From positions 1 through 25,998 of the IMG/VR virus record IMGVR_UViG_3300025108_000336: DNA of 25,998 nucleotides. One strand, given 5' to 3'. Origin of the DNA: a virus. Lineage: Duplodnaviria > Caudoviricetes. This document shows positions 1,190 through 19,453 of this stretch, piece by piece (positions within the stretch are counted from its first letter, which is position 1; every line of letters begins with the position of its first letter). The position numbers and the translations under genes were made by a program. The notes below the pieces were generated by a model, which saw only the letters and a list, made by a program, of their open reading frames with translations, made no database searches and was not told the origin of the DNA.

Positions 1190-4100
1190 TTAATCCTCTA
1201 GTGCGGCTTCTATTAGCTTGGCAATATCTGTTACCAAATGACTGACAGAAGATGCGGCTGACAGGGTGTCATTGGCCAATGCCAGGCCTCCGAGGATTTT
1301 CTCTACCTCTTTCAGGTTCTTCATGGCGTCGCGCTCGCCAAAGTCCTTCAGGTTCCAGGTAGCCTCCATTGCCTGTGGTATGCTAGACAGCATGTTGCCC
1401 TCGGGCGACCACTCTCCTGCGGTAGCGTATATGCCGCTTTCGATAGCATCTCCTACGAATGGCATGCCTCCTAGCGGTTCGGTCAGGGTGGCAAGCATGA
1501 GCCGCTTAGGATCCCAATAGCGTTCGTCGAATACTTCGTCGTCTTCGCCGTCCTTCATATCACGCCATGCGGTGCGCATCAATGTGCCTAGAGCACCGTT
1601 GATCAGGAACATTAAGGCCAATGCGCGGCCTTTTTCACCCATGCTGGTTTGCTTGCTAAAGGTTCTGTATAAGCCCAGGGCTAGCTTCTGACGGCCTTCT
1701 GATGCAAATGCCCACCCAACACGCACAAACGGATTGGTAGCCGTGTTCTCGAAGATAGAGCGCGTGCCTGCGCGGGTAGGTTGCGCTACACGTTCGACCG
1801 ATCTCTCAGCCTCATTCTTAGCCCAGCGTTCAGCCTCGGCACCTGTCATGCCGTTCTGCTTGGCCATCTTGAGCTGATAGTCATACACGATAGCATACGT
1901 GCCTGCGGTCATGAGTGCGTCCATGCCACCGATTGCCTCGCCTGCTTTACGCACTAAGTATTTGAATGTGCTTGGCTTGCTGGCTTCCAGGCCTTTCATA
2001 GCCTCGCGCACCACGACCGGCATCTCATTAAGTCTGCGCTGAATGTAGCTGCTCTTAAATGCTTCGCGCCACATCTTCATGCCCTGCGGAGAAAACAGCT
2101 TGGAAAATCGGTAGATGTAGGATCCGACCGGCATTTCCGCGATAGCAGCACCTAGCTGTGTAGTCTGGATAATGATGACTGACAGGCGTCCAATTAGCAC
2201 TGCGCCTGCTGCACGTCCTAGCATTCTATTCAGAAGGCCTTGAATTGTGGAATATGCAGAAGCATCTACAATGCCTCCTGCGGTAAAGTATTGCTCCCAC
2301 TTGGAAAGCACCCTGACTCCTTGCTGACCTGCCTTAGACTCTACAGAATTGATGACATCTCGGTGGCGCATTACCGGTGACAAATCTTTCATCATAGGCG
2401 CATAGGCTAACCAGTGTCCGATTTGTTGAGTGTGGCTCAAGAATGTTTGAACTACGTCCCGGAACTCCGGCTCGGCAATAGATACGCCACGGGTGCGCAA
2501 ACTACCTGGAGTGAGCGATGCGGTTGACATTGACATGCCAGTAGTAGGATCGGTCATCTCCCCTTTACCTGCCTGCATAGGCTTAACGGTGATAGGAGAG
2601 TATAGAGCGTTCTGAGGCATGTTGATGCCGTTAATGTCTCTGAATGTCGGGTTGATCTGCGCATGCTCGCTACCGTAAACGTCGAGCAAATGAGCACGCA
2701 CTGCCTTAGCTTCGTCAGACAACTGGGCTTCTATTTCTGCTATGAAGTCTTCGTCGTAATTCCATTCGCCTGTCGGTTTGCCATCGTCGTCTTTGGGGCC
2801 GATCATGTGGCGACGACCGTCCTCCTGCATCCACATCATGGTGGCAGACAGTGCCTCAAACTCGGTTAGCTTACGGCCTTGTGACTCTATGCTTTTAACG
2901 CTGCCCAGCTTGTAGCGCAATTTCTCGCCTTGCAGTTTGCCACCGGCCAACTTGTTAAATAGTGCCTCTAGGCCTTCTGCGCGTGCTTGTATGAAGTCAG
3001 CCTTCTTTTGTGACGCTTTGCGCTCCAGGTCTACAAACTTCTTAACGATAGCTGAATTACGGCCAAATATGTAACCAAGCAGATCCTCGAACGAGAGGAG
3101 ATCCAGCAGGAAGTTTTTGCCGCCTGCTTTCATACCTTGTTCCTTGAGCATCTTGGCATCGCGCTCTGCACCGTGTCCTGCCTTGCCAGTAGCACGCTTC
3201 AGTTCTTTGCGCATTATCTCACGATCCTCGCGCTCCATCAGCTTCTTCAGCTTGTATGTAGCATAGCCTGCTTCAAACGCACGGGTAGCCTCTACGACTG
3301 CCTGGATCTTGCGGGACACTGATGCGTTCTTCCAGTTGCCTACAAGCCCGACCAGGTTAGCTTCCATGCGCATCTTGGCTTCTGCCTCGATTGTTTCAGC
3401 GTTGTCGGCAGCATCTAGTCTGCCATTGACGTGGGCATCTACCTCGTCCTGGCTCCACTTCTCTGCCTGCCGCAGAATGGCGAAGATGTCGTGAATGTCG
3501 GCACCTGCTTTGCCCCCAGGCTTTTTGCCTGCCACGTTTTTCGTGACCTTCTCTCGCTTGAATAGCTTCTTGAGCTGGACGTTCATTTCGCGGTTCATCC
3601 ACTTCTCGACTAATCCAGATGCAGATTTGATTCTGCCCTTGAGATACTCGAGCTGCTTCTCTGTTGTGTCCTGCTTGGCCATGGTCAAGGCACCGGTCAA
3701 TCTGCCGCGAAGATCAGGTGGCAGTGACTTTTGAATAGCCTCAAACATAGCCAGGGCATTCAGCACGCCTTCCTTCTCGTCGCTGAACTTGCCAGAGAAC
3801 TCTTTGCCAAAAGCATCGAAGTTGTATGCAGTGCCTCGGGTTTCGATGAAGGCCTGGATAGCCTGGAGCCTTTTGAGAAGATTCTCGAAGAAGGCCATCT
3901 TGAACTCGGGTGACTTGAGCATCCTGCGACGGGTAGCATCCATAAGGCCGACGACCATGTCATCTGTGCCTAGCTGGAACCGAATGTCGCCTTGTTCTGG
4001 GTCGAATCGTTGCGACAAAGGAATCACGTTTCCTGCGTCATCGCGGGTGATGGGGTCTGCTGACTTGATCTGGTTGGGGTTAAAAACTACAATTTCTGTC

Positions 4101-7100
4101 CCGTATGGCACGTTGCTACCGTATCCTTGCTTTGCAATAATGCCATCAAACCCAGCATCTTGTATCAACTTTCCTGCATAAACCCCGTCTTCATCAAACT
4201 TTTCTTCGTCAATGTTTGGAGTTTTTTGTATTAATTTTTTAAAGTTTTCCTCAGTCCCAGTATACGGGTTGGACATCGATAGATACGCAGCAACCTGTAT
4301 GTCGCCAAACTCCTCAGTGTCCCTAGCATCATCGCTAAAATAGATGCCTTCTCCTTGGCCTATTGCACTACCAACCTTAAATTTAGAAAAGGAAGCCTGA
4401 GTCCCATGCCACACAGGGCCAATGGTGTAGCCAGCAGCCTTAGCAGCCTGATCCACCATGTCCTGCACAGCATCCATTTCACCAGCCTCGACTACTGCCA
4501 TGTAGTCAGCGTCCATCTCCTGGGAGATGCTGTAGCTAAGGCCTTCTGTTACCGGTATTCTAAGCGTGCCTTGGGTAAGCAGTTCGTTCTTTGTCTCAGG
4601 CCTAAGTTCATCAAGAGTGACTTGTTTTTTTGCTCTTGCTACAGGCTCGCCTTTGATTACGTAAGCATAGCTTAGGTGCTCTGGAACACCTGCTTCTTCA
4701 GCAGTTTGTATAGTCTCAAGTGACTGACCGGGATCAATTTTGATTACGCCGACGATAGAGGTGTCAGGCAATCCTTTAAATGCAGGCTCTTCAAATTGCT
4801 CGACCATTTCTACAGCATCAGGAAATCCTGCTGCCGTCATTTTTTGCGAAAGGAATTTAGCGTAGGCAGTATGTTGCCCACGTTTTGCAGTGTAGCGTCG
4901 AGTCTTAGCAAAATAGTTTGAGCCTCGCTTGCGTTGCGGCATCTCCATGAGTGCCTTTTCCACTTCCTCTAGTGTCTTCCAGTTTTTAGTGTGACCGGTT
5001 GCCTGTTCGGAGGTTTTGCGAATTTCGTTAAGCATTTTGAGTGCTTTTGTCTTTGAGAGCTTTTTGTCGGCAATAGCTTTGCGCACCTTACCCATCCACA
5101 CAGTTGCGAAGGTTTTGTTTCCAATTACATTGCCTTCTGCCATAAGCACGAGCTTGGCATATCCACCAGTGTTTTTTACACGGTTGATTACGTCAGATGC
5201 TGCACCCTTAGAGTTAAATGCCCACACCACACGGTTGCTTAAATTTTCTACTATGGTCGGAAAAAACATTCCACCTTGAAGCGGAATGCCATCTATTTCA
5301 CCAACCTTCATGCGGTCTATTTGGATGACAGCAGTTTCGTCAGTCTCATTTAAGATCCGTTTGAACACGTCCTCGCTCATTACAGGCATAGCTTCAGGCA
5401 ACGTGCGAGGGCCAATGCTGAATGAAACGTCGCCCCAAGTCATGTCCTCTCCTTTGCGATTAGGATCGAGAGCATTGACATTAGCGTTGTTTGCCAAAGT
5501 GCCAGGCACAGCGTCTGGATCAAACCCTAATTGATTTTTTAATATGCTGTAGCTGATGTCTACTTCTGGCGTGCTTGGATCAATAAACCCTGTAGGCTCC
5601 TGACCATACTCAGGATTTTTAACGTATACCCTGGAACCTATTGACACGGCTTCTTCGCCGCCAATCACCAAACGCCTGTTTGATACATCTCTAAACCCGC
5701 TTGACCTGATTGGATTGTAAGACACTTCTGCGTATTCAGAAATGTCTTCAGGTATAACTGAGGTGCTTACTACCTCGCCAGCTACAGTAGCTAGTGGCGT
5801 TTTGCCCTGACCTGCTGCAATACGTATAGCACCACCTTTGCCACTGATTGCCCTAGTCATCATTTCCGCATTTTTTAAATGTGCCATAGGCATATAAGAC
5901 AATGTTTCCCCTACTCTAGTTGCAGTTTTGGCAACAGGCTTATGAAGCGTAACTGCATATACTGAATTGCCTGCTGCTGTAGATTTGTTCCAAGTTGGAA
6001 TGTCTATACGTGCCTCTACAAGTGTGCCTGGTTCAACTAGGTTCCCGACCTTTTTGTATTTAAGACTTTCGGGTTTGCCTATGTATTTGCGTATGTCGTC
6101 TTCAGTAGGTGGAGTCTCTACGCCTTTAGAAACAAACGGATCGATAACGTCTACTGCATCTGCATAGTCTTCGACAGTGATTTCCCCGTTCGCTAACCGC
6201 ACGGCAGCAACAGCTAGAATCGGGCTGCGTGCTTTTTGCTTATTACTCTCAGCTTTGTTTGCAGCTTTGACTTCCTCCTCGGTTGCCGGCGCATAGGTCT
6301 CTTCCAGGTTGGCAATGCTAAAGCGAATGTCAGGTTGCTCTGGGTCAAATCGCTGCGACAGAGGAATCACGTTGCCTGCGTCATCGCGGGTAACAGGGTC
6401 GGCTAGTTTGATTCTTTCTGGGTCGGTGATAGCGATTTCTTTGCCTGACTCATCTTCTCCCAGCTTGACCATTTCGAGGTCTGCGTAAGGGACGTAATCT
6501 TTTTCAGTGTCTGGCTTGAGGTATACTTGCATCTCTCTAGTGCCGTATGATATGCCAATACCAAAATCTTCCATCATTTCACGGATTCGTGGCCCATCGA
6601 TTGTGAAGTATGCGGCTTGCTTATAAAATGATGTGTTCCTGCCTCCTGGCCCTGTTCCAGTTCTGCTCATATCAAAAACGTGAAACTCATCAGACGCAGT
6701 CTGGTGAAACGCTTTGAGCCAGAATCCAGCAGCCTTCGCAGCCTGATCTACCATGTCCTGCGCGGCATCCATGTCACCAGCCTCGACTGCCGCCATGTAG
6801 TCGGCGTCCATCTCCTGGGAGATGCTAAAGCCCACTTCTGGCTTTGCTTCCATTTCTGCAATCTCAGCAGTAGCAGCAATCACGCTTTCCAACACAGATC
6901 CTTGCTCGGCATTAAGGCCAAACATTTTTCTGACTGCGTTAATCAAGCTCTGCCACAAGGTCATGCCTTTTGCTTTTGGATCAGGAATCTGGTTGAGAGC
7001 TTCCTGGAACACCCTGCTAGAAAACGTCTGTGCTACAAACTCATGCAAATTTGCTAGGCCATAGCCTACGCTGCCAGATATCCCTGCTTTTTTAGCCTGG

Positions 7101-10100
7101 GCTGACATTGGGTCGCCGGTTGTGCGACTCTGCTTGGTCAGTTCAGGGAAGTTCTTGTTAGCTAATAAATAGAGCCTGACCAGTTCTTGCATTTCTGGTG
7201 AGGCCGATTTTGCTTGCTCCTTGATTCTCTTTAAATACTCCGCGCCAATAGGCTGCTGCCCTTCCCTGTCTGTGATAGAATCTCTGGCTATAGGGTAATC
7301 GATTTCTTCTTCAATGCGCTTTTGCGTTGCGACGTGCATTACCTCATGGACGTAAGTCTCTGGGGTGTTTGCTGTAGATATGTAATTACCTTGCCAGCTA
7401 GCAGCGGCACGCTTACGCCGTGCGTTGTATACGTTGGGAGTTGTTAATACATCTTCCGGCAAACTGTCGAGTAGCTGCTGCGCAATAGGAGCCAGATCAA
7501 CAGTAGTCGTAACAGTTTGCAATACTGCGGGATAATATGTTATTGTATTGGTTGCTTCTTGTTGCGCTACGTATTGCAGGCCAGAGCGTTGGTCTTTACC
7601 CCACTTCTTGCGCTGCTCGTCCATTTGACGCTGCGCTCTGCTTTTAGAATCAGATGCATCTCCAATTTCGATAGTAGGTCTGCGCTGAAGATTTTCCGCA
7701 AACTCTTTGGCGTATCTATCTAATTCAATACCCCATCCCTCTTGCTTTTCAAAGTAATCTAAATCTGCTTCGCCTAATGCTAGCTCGTCTAATTGTTGCA
7801 ATACGCTCTTGATGCTGTTTGCTCGGTAGCCGCGAATGAGGAATGTAACGCCGTTTCCGAGGTCTAAATCTACTTCGGGTCCTCCGTAGGATAAATTTTT
7901 AAATTTCTTAATATACTTTGCCAGCGGGTGTTTTGCTATACTCGGTGGCACACCTTTAAAAATTTTGCGTGTTGCTGTAGTAACAAGTTTTTTCCCTCTG
8001 CGATAATAAAGCGCAGCATCTAGTTTCTTAATCTCTTCGTGCCTGTCTCTATCTACGATACCGCTAATATGTTCTTCAACACCAAGGTCTATTGTTTTAA
8101 TGGTGACATTGCTATATGTGTTAATATTATAAAACGCTCCACTAGGTGGGACGCTAGGCAAGTCATAGCTAATGCTGTAACCTAACGACGGGTCTTCTGG
8201 TGTTTCGCCGGTCATCTCTTGTGCTTCACGCTCTGTGCGCTGCTCCATGTCTACCTGGGAGTCGAGGCCGTATAGCTTATTTAGGAAATCATCGATCTTC
8301 TCCTCGCTGACAGTGCCGTCCTTCACGGCCTTGTTGAGTTGGGCAAGACGATAGAACTGGATTCCCCAGAACTGACGCAGAGCACGTAGCATGCTGGCAA
8401 TGCCGGTAGCTGCGCGACCCAGTGCTTCGTTCCTATTAGCCATAGCACTGACCATGCCTACCTCGATGTCTTTAGCGTTCATGTTGCCCTTGACGCCACC
8501 CTTCTTGCGGGTGCGCAGCACCATGACTTCCATTAGCTCTGCAACAGCTTCATCGATAGCTGTTGCCCTGGCTTCTCCCTCTAGTTCGTTAAAGTTGTCT
8601 GGCAGTAGCTTCAGGCCTACTTGCTTGTCGCCCACCTGCTTTGTGCTTAGGCCTTTGTCAATGTGCTGTAGAAACTCCACTACACCTTCCTCGGTCAAGC
8701 TGCCTCCAGGAGCCATAGCCTGTTTCAGGCGAACGTGTGCCTCCTCGTGGAATACTGTCATGATGTCACCACCACGAAAGATGCGAGTCACTACAGATTT
8801 GCCGTCTTTCTTCATTTGCTGGACACGCATGCCTTTGATTGGCGCATCTTTTTTAGTCTCCTGACCACGGCCTTCAGCAATTTCCTGCTGTTGGTCAAAT
8901 CGCTCTTCTGCTCCTTTGCCGTATTGTTGTTCGGCTTTTGAGCTAGTCATAAGCTCGTCTAGCTCTGCTCTTGCAGTTTCGTTGCCTTCAGTAGCTTTCT
9001 CCTGTGCCAACATGATAGAACCTAGCTCTGCTATCTCATTGACAGATTGCATCTCATACCACACATAGCGATCTTGCGCGGTTTTGATGGCTTCCTCCCG
9101 CTTCATGCCTGATCCAATAACCTCGCCGGTATTTCGATCAATGACGCTCCATGCGCCATTCGTATATTCAAATATAGGAAAGTCTTTGTTTTCTGCCTGG
9201 CGATTAGCCAACTCCATCTTCTCTTCAAACTCAGCAGCCTTGGCCTGGGCCTTCTTAAACTCTTCTACTGCTTCCTGCGCTTCTTCGCTATTCGCGTCGC
9301 GCTCCTTGTTGGCTTCTTGTAGTTCACGTCCAAACTCTGCGAAGTTGCCAGTTTTCTCTGCCTGCTCTGCCGCTTTGTCGAGACGTTCGCGTGTTTCCTT
9401 AGTCCAGCCCCAAGCACGTTTTTTAAGCTCTGAGGTGTCTCTCCAGGCTTTGTGCTGTTTTCGAGCGTTCATACCACCCGCACCCCCGAGAAAGGACAGG
9501 AAGATCATTTCTGCCGCAATATCGGGCGCACTGTTCCAGTAACCAGAAAGCTCTTCCCACCAGTTTACGTCGGGCATCTCCTCATTCAGAATGTTTGTCA
9601 AATCCATGACAACGTCCTGGGTCAGGTCTTCGCCAATCTCAATCGCGGTTTCAACACCAGTAACCAATGCGACTTTGCCTGCATACCTGGCTACCCGGTT
9701 GGTGATCGCATTGTCTAATTTGTCCATCGTGCGGTCGATCCACTGCAATCCTCTGGGCATCTTGCCGCGCACTGCAACAAGTTGCTGCACCTTGTTAAGA
9801 GCAGTCTGAGGCACTGCTACGACAGGCGCGACATTATTGGCGTAGTTTTGCGATTGTTCTTGGCTAAGGCCTGCTTGCAAACCGCGCATGAATAGATCCT
9901 CTCGTGCTGCACCTTCCATGCTTGCATACATTGCAGCGGTGCCGACATATGGCACTACCATAGATAAAGATGTAGCTGTGGTGCCTAGCGCGGAACCTAG
10001 CCACCTGCCGACGCTAGATCCTTCGATCTGGTCGTAGTTCTCGGCAGCCGTTTTTACAACAGCACGCCGGTTCAAATACTTGTTGTATTCCTGTGTAGAT

Positions 10101-11224
10101 GCCTCGCGCCTCTTGCGCTCTTCATCGGTCATAGGCACCCGTGCTCGGGGAATATCAGTGGTGAATGTCAACGGATCGACATCACCAAGCTCATAGCTAC
10201 GCAATGCGCGTTGCGTAAATGATTGCCCCATTGACGTTACGTAGGCATCCACGTTGCGCGAAAACGATGCGCTGAAGGCCTGCCAAAAGCTGTATGCCTC
10301 TGGCTTGGGCAAAGTCGCCGTGTAGGTCAATAGATCCTGCACCGCCATGTCGAACATTTCGTCATCGATGCGCATAAGCGTATCGAACTGAATGTTAGCT
10401 TGATCACCTCGGTCTAGGCCTTCGCCTTCACCAATGCTCTGGAGACCCATCAGGATCTCGTTCATTACCTGCCGGTATTCCCGTGGTCTGCTATCAAAGT
10501 CAGAAGTGATCTCGTTCCAGGCCTGCAAGTAATTTGCGTGCAATGCTTTGTCATAGCCAAGGTGCTCGCCGATCTCTTCTAGAAACTTGTTGAAACCATG
10601 CTCTCCTCCACGATTCATCAGTGATGACACTCCTGCTTTGGCCATTAGCAAATTGTGGAACTCTTTGCCGTGGGCGTATTTCGTAGCCTTGCTAGCAATC
10701 TGCTTATCGAATGCGCTGTCGTCGCCAACTCCTGCTCCGTCGAAGTCCTGGTTGGCAATGGCGTCGCGCCAAAATTCATAGGTATCGTTATCAGATAAAT
10801 CGGCGTCAATTTTCTGCGCCTTCAGTCGCGCAGCCAGGTAGCCTGTTGTGCGGTAGACCATCTTGGCCTCCTCGGGGTTATCCATCAAGGTCAGGTTGAT
10901 ATTCCTACCCTTACTCCAGGCGTCCCAATCGTTGTAGGCTCCGTATATACGGGTCAGCTCAGAAGTCATCTTGTCGATGCGCTCCTGGTATTCAAATGGA
11001 TCCTCATCCTGTATAGGTGGCTCCTCCACTATTGGCGCAGACATATTCTGTATGCTGCTCGGAATGGGCATAGTGATAGGCTCCTCTTCCTCCTCTTCTG
11101 GCGTAGGCTCAGTAGCATGGAATTTAGCCATCGATTGCTCATTGTTATCGCTTATGCCCATCTCGCCAGATTCTGGTAATGTCATTACGGAAGGATCAGT
11201 GTCTATACGGTTCGTGTCACTCAT
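1190..11224 (-). CDS. Giant internal virion/ejection protein (~3,344 aa), polyvalent-protein type with zinc peptidase and ADP-ribosyltransferase-like modules
   Basis: Uninterrupted ORF in the T7 gp16 position. Start moved to the ATG at 11224 (MSDTNRID), which overlaps the upstream stop as ATGAGTGA. HExxH motifs at 8735-8749 and 7334-7348. Two H[GQ]T...YF[ST]...EI domains. Helical N- and C-terminal thirds. Confidence 0.9.
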   Translation of the reverse strand: MSDTNRIDTDPSVMTLPESGEMGISDNNEQSMAKFHATEPTPEEEEEEPITMPIPSSIQNMSAPIVEEPPIQDEDPFEYQERIDKMTSELTRIYGAYNDWDAWSKGRNINLTLMDNPEEAKMVYRTTGYLAARLKAQKIDADLSDNDTYEFWRDAIANQDFDGAGVGDDSAFDKQIASKATKYAHGKEFHNLLMAKAGVSSLMNRGGEHGFNKFLEEIGEHLGYDKALHANYLQAWNEITSDFDSRPREYRQVMNEILMGLQSIGEGEGLDRGDQANIQFDTLMRIDDEMFDMAVQDLLTYTATLPKPEAYSFWQAFSASFSRNVDAYVTSMGQSFTQRALRSYELGDVDPLTFTTDIPRARVPMTDEERKRREASTQEYNKYLNRRAVVKTAAENYDQIEGSSVGRWLGSALGTTATSLSMVVPYVGTAAMYASMEGAAREDLFMRGLQAGLSQEQSQNYANNVAPVVAVPQTALNKVQQLVAVRGKMPRGLQWIDRTMDKLDNAITNRVARYAGKVALVTGVETAIEIGEDLTQDVVMDLTNILNEEMPDVNWWEELSGYWNSAPDIAAEMIFLSFLGGAGGMNARKQHKAWRDTSELKKRAWGWTKETRERLDKAAEQAEKTGNFAEFGRELQEANKERDANSEEAQEAVEEFKKAQAKAAEFEEKMELANRQAENKDFPIFEYTNGAWSVIDRNTGEVIGSGMKREEAIKTAQDRYVWYEMQSVNEIAELGSIMLAQEKATEGNETARAELDELMTSSKAEQQYGKGAEERFDQQQEIAEGRGQETKKDAPIKGMRVQQMKKDGKSVVTRIFRGGDIMTVFHEEAHVRLKQAMAPGGSLTEEGVVEFLQHIDKGLSTKQVGDKQVGLKLLPDNFNELEGEARATAIDEAVAELMEVMVLRTRKKGGVKGNMNAKDIEVGMVSAMANRNEALGRAATGIASMLRALRQFWGIQFYRLAQLNKAVKDGTVSEEKIDDFLNKLYGLDSQVDMEQRTEREAQEMTGETPEDPSLGYSISYDLPSVPPSGAFYNINTYSNVTIKTIDLGVEEHISGIVDRDRHEEIKKLDAALYYRRGKKLVTTATRKIFKGVPPSIAKHPLAKYIKKFKNLSYGGPEVDLDLGNGVTFLIRGYRANSIKSVLQQLDELALGEADLDYFEKQEGWGIELDRYAKEFAENLQRRPTIEIGDASDSKSRAQRQMDEQRKKWGKDQRSGLQYVAQQEATNTITYYPAVLQTVTTTVDLAPIAQQLLDSLPEDVLTTPNVYNARRKRAAASWQGNYISTANTPETYVHEVMHVATQKRIEEEIDYPIARDSITDREGQQPIGAEYLKRIKEQAKSASPEMQELVRLYLLANKNFPELTKQSRTTGDPMSAQAKKAGISGSVGYGLANLHEFVAQTFSSRVFQEALNQIPDPKAKGMTLWQSLINAVRKMFGLNAEQGSVLESVIAATAEIAEMEAKPEVGFSISQEMDADYMAAVEAGDMDAAQDMVDQAAKAAGFWLKAFHQTASDEFHVFDMSRTGTGPGGRNTSFYKQAAYFTIDGPRIREMMEDFGIGISYGTREMQVYLKPDTEKDYVPYADLEMVKLGEDESGKEIAITDPERIKLADPVTRDDAGNVIPLSQRFDPEQPDIRFSIANLEETYAPATEEEVKAANKAESNKQKARSPILAVAAVRLANGEITVEDYADAVDVIDPFVSKGVETPPTEDDIRKYIGKPESLKYKKVGNLVEPGTLVEARIDIPTWNKSTAAGNSVYAVTLHKPVAKTATRVGETLSYMPMAHLKNAEMMTRAISGKGGAIRIAAGQGKTPLATVAGEVVSTSVIPEDISEYAEVSYNPIRSSGFRDVSNRRLVIGGEEAVSIGSRVYVKNPEYGQEPTGFIDPSTPEVDISYSILKNQLGFDPDAVPGTLANNANVNALDPNRKGEDMTWGDVSFSIGPRTLPEAMPVMSEDVFKRILNETDETAVIQIDRMKVGEIDGIPLQGGMFFPTIVENLSNRVVWAFNSKGAASDVINRVKNTGGYAKLVLMAEGNVIGNKTFATVWMGKVRKAIADKKLSKTKALKMLNEIRKTSEQATGHTKNWKTLEEVEKALMEMPQRKRGSNYFAKTRRYTAKRGQHTAYAKFLSQKMTAAGFPDAVEMVEQFEEPAFKGLPDTSIVGVIKIDPGQSLETIQTAEEAGVPEHLSYAYVIKGEPVARAKKQVTLDELRPETKNELLTQGTLRIPVTEGLSYSISQEMDADYMAVVEAGEMDAVQDMVDQAAKAAGYTIGPVWHGTQASFSKFKVGSAIGQGEGIYFSDDARDTEEFGDIQVAAYLSMSNPYTGTEENFKKLIQKTPNIDEEKFDEDGVYAGKLIQDAGFDGIIAKQGYGSNVPYGTEIVVFNPNQIKSADPITRDDAGNVIPLSQRFDPEQGDIRFQLGTDDMVVGLMDATRRRMLKSPEFKMAFFENLLKRLQAIQAFIETRGTAYNFDAFGKEFSGKFSDEKEGVLNALAMFEAIQKSLPPDLRGRLTGALTMAKQDTTEKQLEYLKGRIKSASGLVEKWMNREMNVQLKKLFKREKVTKNVAGKKPGGKAGADIHDIFAILRQAEKWSQDEVDAHVNGRLDAADNAETIEAEAKMRMEANLVGLVGNWKNASVSRKIQAVVEATRAFEAGYATYKLKKLMEREDREIMRKELKRATGKAGHGAERDAKMLKEQGMKAGGKNFLLDLLSFEDLLGYIFGRNSAIVKKFVDLERKASQKKADFIQARAEGLEALFNKLAGGKLQGEKLRYKLGSVKSIESQGRKLTEFEALSATMMWMQEDGRRHMIGPKDDDGKPTGEWNYDEDFIAEIEAQLSDEAKAVRAHLLDVYGSEHAQINPTFRDINGINMPQNALYSPITVKPMQAGKGEMTDPTTGMSMSTASLTPGSLRTRGVSIAEPEFRDVVQTFLSHTQQIGHWLAYAPMMKDLSPVMRHRDVINSVESKAGQQGVRVLSKWEQYFTAGGIVDASAYSTIQGLLNRMLGRAAGAVLIGRLSVIIIQTTQLGAAIAEMPVGSYIYRFSKLFSPQGMKMWREAFKSSYIQRRLNEMPVVVREAMKGLEASKPSTFKYLVRKAGEAIGGMDALMTAGTYAIVYDYQLKMAKQNGMTGAEAERWAKNEAERSVERVAQPTRAGTRSIFENTATNPFVRVGWAFASEGRQKLALGLYRTFSKQTSMGEKGRALALMFLINGALGTLMRTAWRDMKDGEDDEVFDERYWDPKRLMLATLTEPLGGMPFVGDAIESGIYATAGEWSPEGNMLSSIPQAMEATWNLKDFGERDAMKNLKEVEKILGGLALANDTLSAASSVSHLVTDIAKLIEAALED
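3981..4070 (-). repeat. Right (C-terminal) arm of ART module, copy A; pairs with 6324-6413
   Basis: Encodes IKSADPITRDDAGNVIPLSQRFDPEQGDI(R). 16 mismatches in 90 nt versus copy B by manual alignment. Confidence 0.95.
4431..4531 (-). repeat. Left (N-terminal) arm of ART module, copy A; pairs with 6726-6826
   Basis: Encodes SISQEMDADYMAVVEAGEMDAVQDMVDQAAKAAG. 8 mismatches in 101 nt versus copy B by manual alignment. Confidence 0.95.
6324..6413 (-). repeat. Right (C-terminal) arm of ART module, copy B
   Basis: Encodes IKLADPVTRDDAGNVIPLSQRFDPEQPDI(R). Direct repeat of 3981-4070. Confidence 0.95.
6726..6826 (-). repeat. Left (N-terminal) arm of ART module, copy B
   Basis: Encodes SISQEMDADYMAAVEAGDMDAAQDMVDQAAKAAG. 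Direct repeat of 4431-4531. Confidence 0.95.
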
Positions 11225-12893
11225 TTTCTTGATTGGCTTCCGCTGCTGATGCTCGGGTTGCACCTACGTTAAAATCCTTAAACCATTGTTTAACTTTTTT
11301 CTCGTCTTTTGCTTCTTGCGGGTTCTCGCGCACCCACTGATTGAATCGTTGTATAACTTTACCTCGATTCATGTGATAGCTTTCTTTGGCAGCAGGGTCT
11401 TCTACCTCCACCATGTGCGTGCCTGATTTGCCGTCTACCACTGCCTGGATGACTGCCTTCTCCCACCTTGTCAGGTTTTCCTGTCCTTTGTTACCCCTAG
11501 TTGAATACATCTGCCGGAACAATGCTGCCTGAGCTTTGTATTCCTTTTCTGCATCTTCTGGGCTTTTTGCGGTTCTGTCAGCAGCAGTTCTGTCTCTATA
11601 GATTTTGTCATACTTGGCGCGGATATCTCGAGCCTCGGGGTAGTCGAATCCTGCACGCTCAAGAAAATCACCTCCGGTCAGGATGCCGTCCATTAGGGCT
11701 TGCCCTAACGATTGTTTTGCCAAGGTGCGATATTGTTGTTGCTGGTCTCTTTGACGTAGATGATTGTTAAGGTGTAATTCTGCTATATCCTGTTCAGTCT
11801 GCGCAGTCCTCTTTTTTTTGTCTTCTATTGCTGATATAAGGTCTTTTTTGAAATCACTATTCTCTGGAAATTTGTGACGAATTGCCATCGTTAGCTCGGT
11901 TCTAACTGGATCATAGCCAGTAGTCTTGGGTTTCCAATTTTGTATTATGCTGGCCATTTTTGAGGCTTCACGTCTCTGATAACTTAAATCTGCTATGTTT
12001 GCTGCGTGCCGCTCGCCTTTGAATTTACTATACTTTGCAACCATGTCTTCGAGCGCAGCCGGTTCAAAATACTTAAAGTCACTGCGTAGCTTTTCTTCTG
12101 AGTAGCTAGGGTCTAATGCCAATTTGTTTTCTAATAGATCCAGGCCATCAGAATACATTTTGCCTTTGGCGACACGTTGCGTTTCAAGTGCATCGTAATA
12201 GTCGTCATCACTATAACCTGGGTAGTTTCTTTTGAAATCTTCTAGGCTTCCTAAGTAGAACCCACTGCCTACTGGATCTTCTTTAATGCCATTCATGAGA
12301 TCAGCACGATTCAACCTGTGGTCGGTCTCTATTCTTATTTTTTCAATAGATTCGACAGGAAGGTAGCTGCTAAGACCATCCAAAGCATTATTCACCATGT
12401 CGCGATTACCGGTTTGCTCGCCTCGCATAACCATGTTGAGCATTGACTGCTTGGCTAGTTGCATATCTTTGATAAGCGCATCTTCCTGGATGCCCAGGCC
12501 TGCTCTTTGAGTGAGTTGTCGCGCTCGGGTTCCGTAAATGTCTTGCTCTAATTGTGACCGATTTCCGCCTGCATAGTCTCTAATAAAACCTTCGGATAAT
12601 TTTTCCCATCCTGCGTTCGCCTCGTCTGCCGACATGTTCGGGTTAGAAATGATCTCCTGCTTGTAGTCTGCGTGCATCTTGTCGAATGCCAGCTCCATCT
12701 CAGCAGCCGTGCGTTTTGCCTGCGCCTCTTTCTGCTGAAAGGCAAGTTTCATGCTGCGGTCGCCTGTTTGACTTAGCACCTCGCCTGCTTTTGCTACTGC
12801 GTCCCAGGGGCGTGCTACGTCGCGCATGCTGCCTCGCGCTCCTACATCGACAGGTTTTACTGCTTCAAATCCTGGTCTGAAATCTTCTGACAT
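11217..12893 (-). CDS. Internal virion/ejection protein (T7 gp15 position, 558 aa)
   Basis: Long, charged, helical ORF between the small ejection protein and the giant protein. Function from synteny; no catalytic motif recognised. Confidence 0.7.
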   Translation of the reverse strand: MSEDFRPGFEAVKPVDVGARGSMRDVARPWDAVAKAGEVLSQTGDRSMKLAFQQKEAQAKRTAAEMELAFDKMHADYKQEIISNPNMSADEANAGWEKLSEGFIRDYAGGNRSQLEQDIYGTRARQLTQRAGLGIQEDALIKDMQLAKQSMLNMVMRGEQTGNRDMVNNALDGLSSYLPVESIEKIRIETDHRLNRADLMNGIKEDPVGSGFYLGSLEDFKRNYPGYSDDDYYDALETQRVAKGKMYSDGLDLLENKLALDPSYSEEKLRSDFKYFEPAALEDMVAKYSKFKGERHAANIADLSYQRREASKMASIIQNWKPKTTGYDPVRTELTMAIRHKFPENSDFKKDLISAIEDKKKRTAQTEQDIAELHLNNHLRQRDQQQQYRTLAKQSLGQALMDGILTGGDFLERAGFDYPEARDIRAKYDKIYRDRTAADRTAKSPEDAEKEYKAQAALFRQMYSTRGNKGQENLTRWEKAVIQAVVDGKSGTHMVEVEDPAAKESYHMNRGKVIQRFNQWVRENPQEAKDEKKVKQWFKDFNVGATRASAAEANQENE

Positions 12894-12905: not shown

Positions 12906-13412
12906 TTATGACTGACCCTTGTAGGGTTCAAATGAACGACGAATGTCATACATATTTGAACCAGTGTTGGCAACACCGCCAAACAGTGTAGACACTGCTG
13001 CAATGTTGCCTGCGCTACTAGCCTGACTGCCTTGCCACCTTTGCATGCTGGAGTCGTTCATATATGCTTCTTGCCGTCTGCGAGATTGATTGATGTCGTC
13101 TAGGGTTGCTAGCTCTAGCTCTGATGACGTTTGCCCTATGGCATCCAGGTAGCTGCCTTCTGTCATGCTGACCCCGCTACCTGCAAGAGAGGCTCGTATT
13201 TGGCCAATGCGCCTGCGATTCATGTCGCGTCTACGTCGTGAGTTTTCAGCAGACACTACTCCCTCTTGCTCTGCCTGTTGCTCTGACAGTTTGGCATTGT
13301 ATCTTGCCATAGACTCCTGAGCTTTGCCCTGTTGATATTGTCCATAAGCACTAATGCCGGTTCCAATCAGTCCAGCAGTAGCTCCTACGATAGCCATTGT
13401 TTCAAGTCCCAT
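12906..13412 (-). CDS. Small internal virion/ejection protein (T7 gp14-like, 168 aa)
   Basis: Hydrophobic Gly/Ala N-terminus (AIVGATAGLIGTGISAYGQYQQGKAQ), Gln/Arg coiled coil, IGQIRASLAGSGV motif and Gly/Ser-rich C-terminal segment, as in podovirus first ejection proteins. Confidence 0.8.
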   Translation of the reverse strand: MGLETMAIVGATAGLIGTGISAYGQYQQGKAQESMARYNAKLSEQQAEQEGVVSAENSRRRRDMNRRRIGQIRASLAGSGVSMTEGSYLDAIGQTSSELELATLDDINQSRRRQEAYMNDSSMQRWQGSQASSAGNIAAVSTLFGGVANTGSNMYDIRRSFEPYKGQS

Positions 13413-13416
13413 GAGC

Positions 13417-13845
13417 TTAGTTAGTTAGTTCTGTAGTTATGATTCTATTCACTTGGTGGTAGTTATTATCCGACCAATTAAATCCCAGCCTTTTTGCCCC
13501 GCGCAGCATTGCTCCTGGTTGCACTGTGCCGAAAAGAATGGTGTGACCACCGCTTGCCATGATGATGTCGATGCCGTCCTGCAATGCCTTGAGCATGCGA
13601 TACGAATGCTTAATGCACATACCCGGGCGGGTGACCATGCCGTGAAAAAAGGCTACGTGGTTTGCGTTGCATAGGAACACAGCACCAAATGCTGCGGCAC
13701 CTTCCTCGTCTTCTACCACGCATGATGACTGAGGAATGATCTGTTCAGGCATAGGCTCGGCGTCATGCTCCTGCCACCACCCACGCAGCACGGGGTAGTC
13801 TTCCTTTGCATATTCGCGTATGCGTATGTCAGAGCTGATCTCCAT
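13417..13845 (-). CDS. GNAT-fold-like protein in the T7 gp13 position (~142 aa)
   Basis: Likely ATG at 13845 overlapping the nozzle 3' end. IRIREY..EDY..L..WW start, beta core, VTRPG and terminal AKRLGF resemble acetyltransferase-fold proteins commonly found here. Confidence 0.6.
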   Translation of the reverse strand: MEISSDIRIREYAKEDYPVLRGWWQEHDAEPMPEQIIPQSSCVVEDEEGAAAFGAVFLCNANHVAFFHGMVTRPGMCIKHSYRMLKALQDGIDIIMASGGHTILFGTVQPGAMLRGAKRLGFNWSDNNYHQVNRIITTELTN

Positions 13846-16800
13846 AGGTCTTGAATTTGCAAACAATGGCCTGGATGTGTAGAGGCATCGGCAGGTCTTG
13901 CTTCAGAATAAAGGTCGCGTCCATTTCATAGTCGTGGTCGATCTTGAACTCTTTTATGCCTGAATACAATAGCGGTGTAGCGTTTTCTCCGTTATAGAAC
14001 GTGACAGTATCAAAAGGCCCGTTTGCATCGGTGCCTACCTTCATGCCGTAAGAATCTCGCACTGCTACTGCTAGCTCTGTGATCTGCTTCTCCCGGCTGA
14101 CGCTAGTGCCGTTTTGCATTTGCACCTCGAGTGCCATAGGCTCGAGCTGTGATTCATAGCTGATGCCCACTGAAATGTGTTCGTAATCTGTTGGATCCCC
14201 TTCTTGGTTGAGCTGTATAGCCCCGCTGGAAACTGTTCGTGGTGCTAGGACTGCGCCATTGGCGTATACCTGCACAGTCTCACCTTCTAGGTGTCCGAGG
14301 CCGGTAACTTCTGTGATAGTCCCTGGGTTGAGCAATGTGAGGCCTGCGTCTACGTAGAAGTCTACGCTATCCTCGTCGGTGACTAGCTCCCAGTATGTTT
14401 CCCAGGATGCGCCTATGCCCGGTTTGCTGCTGGCTGCCGGGGTGTGCGTAGACTTTGCTTTGTAGTTAATGCCGTCTTCGCTGGCTATGTCGCCTGCCGT
14501 GTATTGTCCCTGGATGACTTCCCAGTAGGTTGTCCAAGAAGCTCCTGTGCCTGGTTCGCGGTCTGATGCAGCCGTGTGTGCCAAGATACATTTGTATGGC
14601 AATCCATTGTGAACAGTCTCGTCGTTCAGCGCATAGGTTTGAAAGTTCTCTGTCCATTCTGATATCGATGCAGCAGGCTCATTGTTAGCTCGAGCAGGCC
14701 TAGTTTGTGCTGCTGTCCAAATAAAACCATCATGCTGCACGTCAGGATCGCCAATGCTGTATAATGGACTAGATGGCGAATACTCGGTAGGCGTATTCAA
14801 ATCGGTCACTTCTGCCCAATAAGCGGCGGTATGCGACCCTACTCCTGGCTCATTATTTGTAGCAGATGTGTGCGATTGAATGCACCGGTAAATTTTGCTG
14901 GTGGCAGAATTGTAGACGTAATTTGTGTCATGCCCATCTGCATCGTATTGGTAACTGTGGCCTATGCCATTGTTTTGCCAAGAATCTACGACATGCCATT
15001 CGTGGTCAGTTTGCGCTCCGGTTATCGGTCGAATGTAGGGTCGTAAATCGTTGTCGTATGTATACCAAGTAGACGAAGAATCAGTGTCGTGACTTACTGC
15101 GCAGTAATAAACTGCCTGGTAATAAGTTGAGTCCGAGTAATCTGCAACAAATGAAGATCCCCATACGACGTTACTAGAACTTGTGGTTTTGCGCCAAAAT
15201 ACGACATCACCAACTTGCCAGGTATTGTCTATGAGTTGCCAATCACTTTCAGTAGTCGGTAATTCGTATAATGTCCAAGGCGTCATGCCGTATGTGTCTT
15301 GGTATAGCAGTGACCATGCATCCTCCAAAAAGAACCCATCTGGCTTCAACCGTTCTATGTAGCGAACTGTTGCGCCATTGATTGTGCGCTTTACGACTAC
15401 CCATATCTGATCGTCTTGCCCTTTCACCTTGCGAACGGTTACGTCCTCGAACTGATCTGTCGTGCCGGTGCTGTGCCGGTGCCATCCTACTACGTCCTGG
15501 CCTTCGTCTAGTGTCAGCCCAATGAGCCTGCCGTCACGGGTTACTGCCCAAATGACCTGCTCTGGCTGCGATTGCAGTGCCATGCTTACGATGCCATCTC
15601 CTGTAATGTGCTCTGCCAACAAGGTAAGATCGGCAGTGTTGTATCCATCTGCCTCGAAGCTGTATGACATTTTCCTGACTACGCTGCCTCCACGTTGCAC
15701 AAATACAGTCGCGTCATCAATTAGTATGGGGGCGATGTCGTCGCTGCCGTTGCCCGAGTGCCTCCTGGCACGCACGTTCGTCGGGGTAATAATGCCTTCT
15801 TCTTTGCTCGACGAGATCACCCATTCGTCGCCTGTAGATCCGCACAGCAATGCCTTTTCACTTACCAGCCATTGGATGTCGTTTGCTTGGCCTGAGAGCA
15901 GCGTGTGCGTCCAGGATTGGTCGTCATTGTTGCCTGGCTCAAAGTTCTCGTAGTCATCCACCGAAGATGCCCAGATCGTCTGCTTGCGTGTTTCTGTGCT
16001 CGCAAACACAAGTCTTTGCTCATGGGTGCAAATCGTTTTAGGATACCCGTTTTTGTCGCTCCAGGCTCCTTCTCGCCACACAGCAGTAGCACCAGATTGC
16101 ACCGGCTTAAATACTTCCACCGCTGCTATCCGGTCTGAGTTTACTTGGGTAACTTTTACTACCCCACGAATGTATGGTTCAGCGGTATCGATTAACGCAA
16201 AGCTGCCCGTGCCTGGTGTGTCATATTGATTGTATTTAATCCGCATGCGCACAGCTTCGTCCTGTGTGCGCTCTACATCAAAGTTTGCGTCCTTGTCTGA
16301 TGTGTATATGGCAAACTGCTCCCATCCTGCGCCTTTGCCTTCATTGATCTCGAGCGTGAACTTCCCTCCCCAGGTTCCTCCTGTGCTAAATCGGTATACC
16401 CCTTGCACCCAAATTTCTGGTGAGTATTTGCCATTGTTTGCGGTAGACGCCACGATCTTTGTCTCGAACTGGTCTTTGGGCCGTTCGTGGCTAATCTGAA
16501 AGTATGATCCTACGTGTCCTGGCACAAACAGGGCGTCCGATGCTGTAAGCGTTTGCGTAGTGCCTACATAGCCAACACGTCCGGTAGTTAGGGTGAGATC
16601 CTCGTCAAGGTTCTCTGTGTTCATTGGCGGGTAGCTCCAGGCTACTTGGGCAAACGTCCACACGTCGTCATTCAACCTGGTGAGCTTGTATGGCGGGTAA
16701 TCAGGGTGGACAAAGTATGCCACGTTGTTGATCTGCTTGATGTCTATCTCAAACAAGTCTTCATCACCGTAGGGCGTAGTGACTGTCAGGTTGCCACCAC

Positions 16801-17086
16801 CAGGTGCCTGGACGATCTGGTCGTTCTTGAAAAAGCGTATTTGCGTTGCCGTGATTTCCATCACAAACGTCTTTTCGATTGATATTTGGAATGTCTCGAG
16901 TCGCGTCTTGCCTGGTGCAGTTGCAGTGTAAGACAGTCCTGGCCTGCGCTTTGCGCTGCCGTATGGAGTCAGAGTAAAGTTGCGCAGCGTTCTGCACCCC
17001 GTGCGATATTTTTCTAGATCGCTACGGTAATACAGGAGAGGTGACATTTCGCCACCGGCAAATGACGGGATATTCTGAACAATCAT
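13829..17086 (-). CDS. Tail nozzle / tail tubular protein B (T7 gp12-like, 1,085 aa) with internal carbohydrate-binding-like repeat insertion
   Basis: SFAGGEMSPLLYYRSDLEKY...NF...YGSAKRRPG N-terminus, WREGAWS...GYP...HEQRLVFA, FVQRGG...VR, DLTLLAEHI, VVGWHRH, RYIERL, FYVDAG, GLGHLEGETV and QDLPMPLHI are all typical of this family. Confidence 0.9.
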   Translation of the reverse strand: MIVQNIPSFAGGEMSPLLYYRSDLEKYRTGCRTLRNFTLTPYGSAKRRPGLSYTATAPGKTRLETFQISIEKTFVMEITATQIRFFKNDQIVQAPGGGNLTVTTPYGDEDLFEIDIKQINNVAYFVHPDYPPYKLTRLNDDVWTFAQVAWSYPPMNTENLDEDLTLTTGRVGYVGTTQTLTASDALFVPGHVGSYFQISHERPKDQFETKIVASTANNGKYSPEIWVQGVYRFSTGGTWGGKFTLEINEGKGAGWEQFAIYTSDKDANFDVERTQDEAVRMRIKYNQYDTPGTGSFALIDTAEPYIRGVVKVTQVNSDRIAAVEVFKPVQSGATAVWREGAWSDKNGYPKTICTHEQRLVFASTETRKQTIWASSVDDYENFEPGNNDDQSWTHTLLSGQANDIQWLVSEKALLCGSTGDEWVISSSKEEGIITPTNVRARRHSGNGSDDIAPILIDDATVFVQRGGSVVRKMSYSFEADGYNTADLTLLAEHITGDGIVSMALQSQPEQVIWAVTRDGRLIGLTLDEGQDVVGWHRHSTGTTDQFEDVTVRKVKGQDDQIWVVVKRTINGATVRYIERLKPDGFFLEDAWSLLYQDTYGMTPWTLYELPTTESDWQLIDNTWQVGDVVFWRKTTSSSNVVWGSSFVADYSDSTYYQAVYYCAVSHDTDSSSTWYTYDNDLRPYIRPITGAQTDHEWHVVDSWQNNGIGHSYQYDADGHDTNYVYNSATSKIYRCIQSHTSATNNEPGVGSHTAAYWAEVTDLNTPTEYSPSSPLYSIGDPDVQHDGFIWTAAQTRPARANNEPAASISEWTENFQTYALNDETVHNGLPYKCILAHTAASDREPGTGASWTTYWEVIQGQYTAGDIASEDGINYKAKSTHTPAASSKPGIGASWETYWELVTDEDSVDFYVDAGLTLLNPGTITEVTGLGHLEGETVQVYANGAVLAPRTVSSGAIQLNQEGDPTDYEHISVGISYESQLEPMALEVQMQNGTSVSREKQITELAVAVRDSYGMKVGTDANGPFDTVTFYNGENATPLLYSGIKEFKIDHDYEMDATFILKQDLPMPLHIQAIVCKFKTYGDQL
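14370..15310 (-). repeat. About five degenerate CBM5/12 (chitin-binding type)-like protein repeats inside the nozzle
   Basis: YYCAVSHDT; YRCIQSHTSATNNEPGVGSHTAAYWAEV; WTAAQTRPARANNEPAASISEWTE; YKCILAHTAASDREPGTGASWTTYWEVI; YKAKSTHTPAASSKPGIGASWETYWELV. The last two are 132 nt apart. Confidence 0.75.
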
Positions 17087-18390: not shown

Positions 18391-19314
18391 TCAGGGTGAC
18401 TCATCACAGGGGACTTCGACGACTTTCTCTTCCTCAGTGCGAGTGGCACCGTGGCGACCCTTGGTGCGAACCTGGAGAGTCTCGTTCAAGTCATCACGCA
18501 CGGAGAACTTAGTGCTCTTGCCGTTAGCAGCGAATGCGACACCGTCGGAGGTCATAGCGACACAGGTGCGGATATCAGTCGAGCTATCAAGAGACAGAAG
18601 CTGAGTGCGAATGAAGTGGAAGCCCATGAAGTGATCGACTTCGCCTTCGATCAGTGCCTTCACGTCGGCGTAGCGACTGTTGGAGACTTGATCGACGTTC
18701 ACGAGGAGATCATCGAGCTGAACTTGCGAAACCAGAAAGAGCAGTCTGCTACCGAGCATCTTGCTGTTGTTCTGGCCTGCGGCTTCGTTAACACCCAGGA
18801 TCGACTTGGCCTTGATAATCTTGGCCAGGGTCAGGCCGGAGTTGGATCCGGTTCCTCCGTGGATGTAGTTGACTGCCACCTTCTGGGTAGACGGAAGATC
18901 AACGGCTTCGTCGCCATCCTCGCCGACGTATGCGGTGCCAGTGGAGGCATCGATTACGGCTTGGTCGTAGGCGCGTTGGAAGGCCATTGCGTGCGACTCG
19001 ACTACAGCACTACGAGGAGAGCTGACTTCGCCGAGAAGCTCTTCGTCCCATTCGTCCTCGTGGTAGACTTCGTCATAGGCGCGGAGCGAGAGCTTGCGCT
19101 TTGCGAAGGGTGTGTTGGACGGGATGGTTTTGCCCGAGCGTGTGGTGATAAGACGAGCAGTGCTCTTGCCGATGAAATTCAGCAGTTTGCGTTTGCCCTT
19201 AACGGCTTCTTGGCGAACCAAGGAGTGAATCCGACCTTCGCCTTGCTGCACAAGGTGCTGCCAGTTTTGATCGAACTGGTCGGTATAGTGTTGGGGGATA
19301 GTAGTATCCGGCAT
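18391..19314 (-). CDS. Major capsid protein (~307 aa)
   Basis: Likely start MPDTTIPQHYTDQFDQNWQHLVQQ..GR. Motifs AMAFQRAYDQAVIDA, GLTLAKIIKAKSIL, QLDDLL, YADVKALIEGEVDHFMGFHFI, GATRTEEEKVVEV. The longer ORF-track start at 19374 lies inside a hairpin. Confidence 0.92.
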   Translation of the reverse strand: MPDTTIPQHYTDQFDQNWQHLVQQGEGRIHSLVRQEAVKGKRKLLNFIGKSTARLITTRSGKTIPSNTPFAKRKLSLRAYDEVYHEDEWDEELLGEVSSPRSAVVESHAMAFQRAYDQAVIDASTGTAYVGEDGDEAVDLPSTQKVAVNYIHGGTGSNSGLTLAKIIKAKSILGVNEAAGQNNSKMLGSRLLFLVSQVQLDDLLVNVDQVSNSRYADVKALIEGEVDHFMGFHFIRTQLLSLDSSTDIRTCVAMTSDGVAFAANGKSTKFSVRDDLNETLQVRTKGRHGATRTEEEKVVEVPCDESP

Positions 19315-19353
19315 TGGAGTGAGTTGGTTAGAATTAACGTGTTCACTCTCGGG

Positions 19354-19389
19354 AAAAAAATAGCCCGAGAGCATTCAATACTCTCGGGC
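19354..19389 (-). terminator. Terminator-like hairpin in the MCP 5' leader
   Basis: Minus strand GCCCGAGAG-TATTGAATG-CTCTCGGGC followed by TATTTTTTT, ending about 40 nt before the MCP ATG. Confidence 0.7.
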
Positions 19390-19453
19390 CTGGGCAATTT
19401 GCGGTGATCTACTACAAGGTAGGCCTGCTCGGGTGATCCGGTCTGTGGGATTC

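Follow-up and report, generated by a model that had tools for sequence, protein, structure and literature searches.

The tripeptide [YF]S[ILV] borders exchangeable modules in a family of giant phage polyvalent proteins and is a candidate processing site

The virus record IMGVR_UViG_3300025108_000336 (26 kb, about 70% complete) carries, among its late virion genes, a gene for a giant protein with a conserved N-part, a variable array of cargo modules and a conserved C-part. We analysed a stretch of 25,998 nucleotides (nt) of this record, hereafter named the window, together with relatives of the giant protein. Across the family, the tripeptide [YF]S[ILV] marks the borders of the modules, and modules are exchanged by crossovers falling either in 9-11 motif-coding bases or in longer repeats that belong to ADP-ribosyltransferase (ART) modules. 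Selection acts on the motif as protein, and the only role of its DNA is that of a 9-11 nt crossover microhomology. As to function, we lean slightly towards a motif-joined module array in a polyvalent ejection protein, where the motif would be a processing site, likely cut by a zincin-like domain lying upstream of the array; at this stage it is a candidate site.

The original prediction, made from the window, described six [YF]SI sites that divide the giant protein into units of 450, 169, 257, 43, 296 and 185 amino acids (aa), with an FQL variant closing the array (Table 1). All sites and lengths were recovered, and [YF]SI occurs nowhere else in the giant protein; YQL, at aa 3129, has to be added to the FQL-type variants. 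Six sites compare with 0.65 expected (P 6e-5), which places the motif at rank 2 of 3,200 comparable patterns. Once these 3,200 patterns are allowed for, the value becomes about 0.2, so that the excess in the window is not decisive and homologues settle the matter.

Relatives were gathered through the C-part (66 proteins) and from about 100 related loci. Each was anchored with hidden Markov models of the domain preceding the array and of the C-part; 10 of 99 proteins were left out because the N anchor was missing, and L076 because its anchor was misplaced. Two sets of representatives were used, an earlier one of 52 and an enlarged one of 73 that are less than 80% identical. In the variable region of the 52 representatives, [YF]S[ILV] was found 165 times, for 29.6 expected. 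Among the 20 possible middle residues only Ser was enriched, none of the others exceeding 1.3-fold, and neither [YF]T[ILV] nor [YF]C[ILV] was in excess. The enlarged set gave 234 motifs in the variable middle (43.8 expected), with no enrichment in the conserved ends (N-part, 21 versus 40.7 expected; C-part, 26 versus 37.9). All 73 relatives hold at least one motif, and longer arrays hold more of them (rho 0.71). Where cargo is scarce or lacking (P0013, P0014, P0016, P0028, P0054), a single motif is retained, which joins the N-part to the C-part. The surrounding consensus is roughly [GD]-[DGE]-[ATI]-[STPA]-[FY]-S-[IVL]-[GRA], polar and rich in Gly and Pro on its upstream side. We also placed the terminal junction independently, by means of the first helix of the C-part, which located it in all but 11 of the 73 relatives. 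Among these 62 junctions, 49 read [YF]S[ILV] and 58 have Ser. In the rest, Ser gives way to Ala (2), Gln (in the window) or Met, never to Thr or Cys.

We then compared the variable regions with each other by BLASTP after masking the motifs. Half of the alignment ends (345/690) fell within 10 aa of a motif, for 10% expected, and decoy masks attracted 4-9% of the breakpoints. Cutting the 52 proteins at their motifs yielded 114 units, forming 13 families and 60 singletons. Unit families recur beside varied neighbours: unit 3 of the window, for instance, has 9 copies among the 52 representatives, in varied company. The proposal of an in-frame modular cassette array delimited by the motif is thus borne out, through family-wide enrichment, masked breakpoints and recurring units.

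Exchanges could be followed at the DNA level as well. In the close relative L107, the left flank of motif 2 is fused to the right flank of motif 3, without unit 2, and other cargo is present from motif 4 on. Unit 2 of the window is flanked by a 10-bp direct repeat covering the motif. A contig of run X12, an independent metagenome, skips 6314-6822, i.e. 507 nt, in frame, with 10 nt that could be assigned to either side (depth 5; shorter flank 46 nt; alignment at 85% likeness). Loose ends in X12 and X14 fall within motifs 1, 2 and 4. Among distinct DNA breakpoints from 67 genes, 37 of 90 lie within 9 nt of a motif centre, for 6.6% expected, and they concentrate on the bases that open the motif. 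Gain and loss of cassettes therefore map to motif-coding bases, as had been anticipated for indel breakpoints in homologues. The remaining breakpoints are in part located in the longer ART-wrapper repeats, and represent a second level of exchange, which swaps ART cores and reorders units.

Is this signal read in DNA or in protein? It had been claimed that all sites follow the DNA pattern TWY AGC ATH. This holds for the six window copies, and AGC in 5/5 independent copies departs from the gene background (P about 0.005), but it is a lineage trait only. Among the 145 motif serines examined (38 genes), 53 are encoded by AGY and 92 by TCN; all six codons occur, and the two boxes are mixed in 18 of 33 genes. 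Codons for Phe, Tyr and Ile track the background, third positions are free, and no wider DNA consensus surrounds the motif. Identical motif 9-mers were found in just 12 of 99 within-gene pairs, and AGC is mildly enriched (43 versus 26.4). Since both Ser boxes are used and Phe, Tyr and Ile codons stay at background, the signal is selected as protein, and the notion of a conserved DNA junction of the form TWY AGC ATH is not supported. With synonymous positions free and both boxes in use, the motif also provides no conserved DNA site independent of the protein code, of the kind that characterizes attC-like site-specific recombination cassettes.

In the duplicated modules of the window, the repeats 4431-4536/6726-6831 and 3978-4069/6321-6412 do terminate at motifs, as claimed. 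By Pfam, the assignment of both copies as ART modules stands for one of them only: unit 6 matches the ART-PolyVal/Tox-ART-HYD2 profile (PF18760, 73.4 bits for a cut-off of 31.2) and its alignment shows the WHGT, IYFS and FDGI segments (H, Y and D positions), whereas unit 2 has no Pfam match at E<=1. Unit 2 has the same wrapper as unit 6, at 52% identity. These modules consist of a conserved wrapper (an N-terminal DxxY helical hairpin and a C-terminal ADPVTRD...PLSQRF segment) around a hypervariable core. Cores are exchanged by homologous recombination, and some (L080, L082, L088) do not look like ART.

We used AlphaFold to examine where motifs lie relative to folded domains. For the upstream domain with motif 1 (52 sequences, mean predicted local distance difference test score, pLDDT, 77), the motif had a pLDDT below 50. 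The same was true of motifs 4, 5 and 6 in a model running from motif 4 to motif 6 (10 sequences, mean pLDDT 70.5). Motif 5 forms a low-confidence loop of six residues, with an ordered part of the 43-aa leader (pLDDT about 78-82) on one side and the folded unit 5 on the other. All four modelled motifs are thus predicted to sit in flexible, disordered linkers beside folded domains, in agreement with the location originally suggested. The 43-aa leader precedes unit 5 in the window and in 8 of 9 aligned relatives. The leader is inherited together with unit 5 and with the position of the internal motif, something that recombination alone would not call for. Another ART-like family is preceded by a leader of 27-31 aa, and both kinds of short leader may be likened to propeptides.

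The ART wrapper further allowed us to look at junctions in other giant proteins. Its profile retrieved 8,332 cluster representatives at E<=0.001, and only 14 of 149 new top matches carry a C-part of the window type. For 111 of these 149 proteins (those below 1,800 aa or without a wrapper end being left out), mostly built on another chassis, next to the wrapper end come an aromatic residue and a protein-specific pair: FAA, [FY]QP, FMP, [FY]SK, FSE, [FY]SP or YRV. Unrelated giant proteins thus close the same ART module with their own dialect, e.g. FQP, YMP, FSE or YRV. In 55 of 105 within-protein comparisons the pair following the aromatic residue is the same, versus 6.1% for comparisons between proteins. 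Elsewhere in a protein, its own dialect is found at 1.68 times the expected number (318 versus 189.6), foreign dialects at 0.96 times. Of 202 dialect sites, 149 have Ser in the middle and the others mostly Q, R, A or M, so that Ser is not chemically required. Judging from these comparisons, the junction code is a property of the chassis, not of the module, with the aromatic residue as its constant. An association of dialect with ligand type was set aside, since kin share labels.

A candidate enzyme lies directly before the array in all relatives, in the form of a zincin-like domain. In the window protein, HEEAH and E905 lie on predicted helices following two strands, i.e. an HExxH helix with a downstream Glu ligand. 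Across the 73 relatives, Glu is retained at the catalytic position in 72, and the third ligand, also Glu, is likewise kept in 72. At the first ligand position 34 relatives have His and 37 have Glu; at the second, 35 have His and 34 have Glu. Both positions carry His or acidic residues in 71 of the 73. A hydrophobic-HExxH pattern is also present in 83 of 126 long wrapper-bearing proteins, mostly of other chassis, versus 1 in shuffles. A cargo module of L107 (L107:6502-7125) reads EEMIH, indicating that the His-to-Glu ligand swap occurs in cargo zincin-like domains too. An hhalign comparison of the zincin-like alignment with unit 1, whose second half is itself zincin-like, gave a probability of 0.8%.

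We propose the following scheme. The conserved N- and C-parts would enclose swappable modules, each joined by [YF]S[ILV] in a predicted flexible linker. The motif would be cut in the maturing head or after ejection, which would free each module and remove the short leaders, the likely enzyme being the zincin-like domain just upstream. Since the motif is the sole sequence common to all junctions, it would also be the microhomology handle: a RecT/YqaJ-type system, such as that found in a close relative, would use it in this way, and a new cassette would enter in frame with a cutting site at both ends. Cleavage at the motif, by whichever enzyme, is in our opinion probable; that the upstream zincin-like domain is the one that cuts is an assignment to which we give a slight preference.

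Several observations weigh against this scheme. Half of the BLASTP breakpoints lie away from any motif, and 73 of 438 alignments run across one. The last junction of the window itself is FQL, a variant kept in L107. Ser codon boxes cluster within genes (permutation P 0.001), which is expected if recombination copies junction DNA, and such duplication may partly cause the dialects and the within-protein match. Concerning the enzyme, canonical HExxH is present in only 27 of the 73 relatives, the rest having mostly EExxH, EExxE or HExxE, and motif density is alike without it (4.4 versus 3.9 per 1,000 aa). P0029 and P0056, whose ligand positions read R-x-x-x-Q, still hold 5 and 6 motifs. The zincin assignment is drawn from a sequence pattern: the alignment had no useful match among Pfam, PHROG and PDB profiles, the best relevant Foldseek match was the metallopeptidase 4l7a (E 0.12), and in VIA the best scores of the model (Z 5.8) were to unrelated helical proteins. 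AlphaFold did not dock motif 1 into the zincin-like domain in cis. No natural split of the C-part was found, a search for stand-alone C-parts giving 9 matches, 6 of which came from contigs no longer than about 5 kb. By tblastn against GenBank phage records, the C-part, unit 3 and unit 5 had no match and unit 6 a single weak one, so that no cultured relative with proteomics was found. Finally, N4 vRNAP carries an MPTase domain with HExxH, yet it is packaged and stays uncut, according to the available text of PMC5512222 and PMC13434306.

The N4 precedent brings up a first alternative, in which the motif is read and not cut. It would be a docking, threading or unfolding signal for the ejection machinery, or for a catalytically relaxed zincin-like domain, and folded modules would be packed or passed through the tail singly. 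Protein-level conservation, linker position and chassis-specific dialects suit any cognate reader, and the frequent replacement of the His ligands would fit a relaxed domain. Near-complete retention of the catalytic-position Glu argues against it, as do the 27-43-aa leaders, which are also bounded by motifs and are too short to need an unfolding signal of their own. We consider this alternative unlikely.

Alternatively, the motif could be cut by an enzyme other than the upstream domain, be it a host protease, a separate phage peptidase or a cargo zincin, for example that of unit 1. This would account for the persistence of motifs where the upstream site looks dead, as in P0029 and P0056. Other candidates exist, namely a small HExxH open reading frame (ORF) in the genome of a relative (L110:3245-3556) and the scaffold-position gene of the window, which matches a PHROG labelled protease. 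On the other hand, unit 1 is optional cargo, and protein-specific dialects speak against one shared host enzyme. In addition, the other virion genes of the window, capsid, scaffold and portal included, hold only 3 [YF]S[ILV] in 4,358 aa, none at a terminus. Taken together, these points make another enzyme quite improbable.

A reading in which the motif is primarily a DNA junction (recombination site or scar), with the peptide as by-product, appears very unlikely to us. The pile-up of breakpoints at its first bases, the 10-bp direct repeat flanking unit 2, the mild AGC enrichment and the clustering of Ser codon boxes within genes are in its favour; it is contradicted by the use of both boxes, often within one gene, by the free third positions and lack of a wider consensus, and by the conservation of the motif at co-inherited leader-enzyme joints. 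Self-cleavage through an N-to-O acyl shift at the motif Ser, which would resemble Nup98 or FIIND autoproteolysis, is barely credible: Ser is indeed the most conserved position of the terminal junction, but it is replaced there by Ala, Gln and Met and never by Thr or Cys, the corresponding Thr and Cys tripeptides are unenriched, 42 of 202 sites in other chassis have Q, R, A or M instead, and the motifs lie in disordered linkers with no shared surrounding fold, so that the obligate Ser/Thr/Cys nucleophile in a dedicated fold is not seen at [YF]S[ILV] sites.

Cleavage by the upstream domain remains the reading we slightly prefer. It may be part of a wider, self-reading punctuation code, towards which we remain more hesitant, leaning somewhat against it. 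Each lineage of giant proteins would possess its own metal-site reader, with interchangeable His and Glu ligands, and its own short dialect; the same bases would be both an in-frame handle for loading cassettes and a protease site releasing and activating them, inhibitory leaders being removed.

The features of the giant protein are gathered in Table 1. With an ART-PolyVal domain and the zincin-like domain of unit 1, it combines at least two biochemically disparate domains and, on the strength of these matches, is a member of the phage polyvalent proteins. Arrays of relatives add LPD3, LPD37, PBECR5, RadC, kinase and PRTase domains. ESM Atlas gave no usable match for units 5 and 3. The core of unit 5 is modelled with confidence. 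Fold searches with unit 5 gave a best Z of 6.3, to CARD domains, and no hit with E<=0.001 or Z>=8; its beta part had weak rows for YTH/EVE/THYN1 modified-base readers and its helical insert for death-fold domains, all below significance.

Table 1. Giant protein, its modules and junctions, and two neighbouring genes (window positions)
Feature	Position	Strand	Remarks
Giant ejection-type polyvalent protein, 3,357 aa: variable cargo array between conserved N- and C-parts	1190..11263	-	GTG start; 3,344 aa from ATG at aa 14
Zincin-like (MPTase-like) domain, about aa 812-1018	8210..8830	-	HEEAH aa 839-843, third ligand E905; candidate reader or protease
Motif 1, YSI, aa 1029	8171..8179	-	Disordered linker (predicted) after zincin-like domain
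Unit 1, 450 aa: unknown N-half and second zincin-like domain (HEVMH, aa 1306-1310)	6830..8170	-	phrog_2206 E 1e-7; PDB 8vb2 E 1e-4
Motif 2, FSI, aa 1479	6821..6829	-	Left-hand copy of the 10-bp direct repeat around unit 2
Unit 2, 169 aa: ART-type wrapper, short divergent core	6323..6820	-	Missing motif-to-motif in L107, P0003 and run X12
Motif 3, FSI, aa 1648	6314..6322	-	
Unit 3, 257 aa: recurrent module	5552..6313	-	Weak PF25735 match
Motif 4, YSI, aa 1905	5543..5551	-	L107 and the X12 and X14 runs have a breakpoint here
43-aa unit, conserved leader of unit 5	5423..5542	-	Partly ordered against unit 5 in prediction; possibly propeptide-like
Motif 5, FSI, aa 1948	5414..5422	-	Short disordered loop (predicted) between leader and unit 5
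Unit 5, 296 aa: conserved folded module, function unassigned	4535..5413	-	AlphaFold
Motif 6, YSI, aa 2244	4526..4534	-	
Unit 6, 185 aa: ART-PolyVal ADP-ribosyltransferase module in conserved wrapper	3980..4525	-	Pfam E 4e-20
Terminal junction, FQL, aa 2429	3971..3979	-	Variant at the site reading [YF]S[ILV] in 49/62 relatives
Conserved C-part, 926 aa	1190..3970	-	No Pfam or PHROG family
558-aa gene	11217..12893	-	T7 gp15-like by position only; no family match
T7 gp14-like internal virion protein	12906..13412	-	phrog_418, E 7e-29

The minus strand of the window is a T7-like podophage virion cluster, as judged from Pfam and PHROG: terminase, portal, scaffold-position gene, capsid, tail tubes, gp14-like gene, 558-aa gene, giant ORF and the N-terminus of a tail fibre. 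The giant gene occupies the third internal-virion gene position, with terminase, portal, capsid, tail tube and gp14-like genes all upstream. From this gene position only, its product is likely packed in the virion and injected into the host. Other genes of the cluster deserve mention. A tail tubular protein (13829-17086) has an insertion of CBM5/12-like repeats (PF02839, E 8e-9), and one YSI in it belongs to such a repeat. Between the tail tube and gp14-like genes, a 149-aa ORF (13417-13866) has no Pfam or PHROG match; an acetyltransferase-like gene often occupies this slot. The scaffold-position gene (19596-20594) matches phrog_458, the family labelled protease (E 3e-16), and a DUF3310 gene (21219-21449) lies between it and ORFs downstream of the portal gene. 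On the plus strand, a 318-aa ORF antisense to the capsid gene (18451-19407) is probably a shadow frame.

Metagenome runs holding at least half of the window are marine (11 rows, 6 of them possibly the source of the record). A relative whose C-part is 99% identical is found on a 39,152-bp contig of an Akkermansiaceae metagenome-assembled genome, and further relatives come from Terrimicrobium, Verrucomicrobiales and Coraliomargarita records, so that a verrucomicrobial host is likely for the window phage. The genome of a close relative encodes RecT, YqaJ and RusA, and no integrase showed up among those of its ORFs that were inspected. In the genome of the relative L110, a 378-aa ORF without Pfam match is followed by a 103-aa ORF with HEMGH, the small HExxH ORF mentioned above (the pair spans L110:2112-3556), and a CHAP-domain gene lies upstream of the pair. 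The 378-aa ORF has what we take to be a phosphoesterase-like look.

Polyvalent proteins were defined by Iyer, Burroughs, Anand, de Souza and Aravind (2017, PMC5512222), who, in the available text, propose that MPTase (auto)processing releases domains, by analogy with RNA-virus polyproteins. The present protein resembles theirs, being a giant product of a virion cluster with ART-PolyVal and a zincin-like MPTase. Unlike in their families, its N- and C-parts match no Pfam LPD. In contrast with our description, the compared parts of their article name no junction motif, motif-bounded exchange or dialects, and the word 'linker' occurs 0 times in its main text. The gene order gp14-like, 558-aa gene, giant protein, tail fibre resembles gp14/gp15/gp16-type ejectosomes (T7, phiM1 gp48, N4 vRNAP), and the zincin of unit 1 has matches in phiM1 gp48 (E 1e-4) and in the N4 vRNAP family; no motif-punctuated cargo array is reported for these ejectosome proteins, and 'cleav' and 'protease' have 0 occurrences in the available text of the phiM1 paper (PMC11440229). 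Closer to the motif itself, the SPN3US prohead protease gp245 recognizes a three-residue A-X-E site on virion-internal proteins, and some propeptides hold several sites (PMC10052503, available text). Both systems place a three-residue signal on ejection-type proteins, but in SPN3US a dedicated protease removes N-terminal propeptides from separate proteins, whereas here the sites are internal to one chain. Integron-like cassette arrays and polymorphic-toxin CT exchange also have one more junction than cassettes, and cassettes recurring with different neighbours; unlike integron-like arrays, there is no fixed DNA site here and the cassettes are fused in one reading frame. The literature compared also included, in part, a phi24B preprint, where gp47 (2,811 aa) is a proposed ejection protein, as well as PMC9503650 and PMC9024508. 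Our search, in which subscription papers are thinly covered and supplements are not, found no description of a [YF]S[ILV]-type junction motif. As far as the available text of these sources goes, the polyprotein idea is already published (PMC5512222), and what is new is a defined junction code doubling as a recombination handle.

In the parts of this literature that were compared, release by a zincin has been proposed since 2017 without a site or assay, and the present family offers an exact candidate site together with a candidate enzyme. The domain-release idea becomes directly testable by swaps, given ligand variants that occur naturally, chassis with and without cargo, and matched dialects. 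Motif-bounded exchange accounts for cargo gain without loss of frame, and [YF]S[ILV] divides unannotated giant proteins into units, giving a catalogue of candidate anti-host or anti-defence modules. If true, the punctuation code would be a general plug-and-play delivery platform across thousands of uncultured phage proteins.

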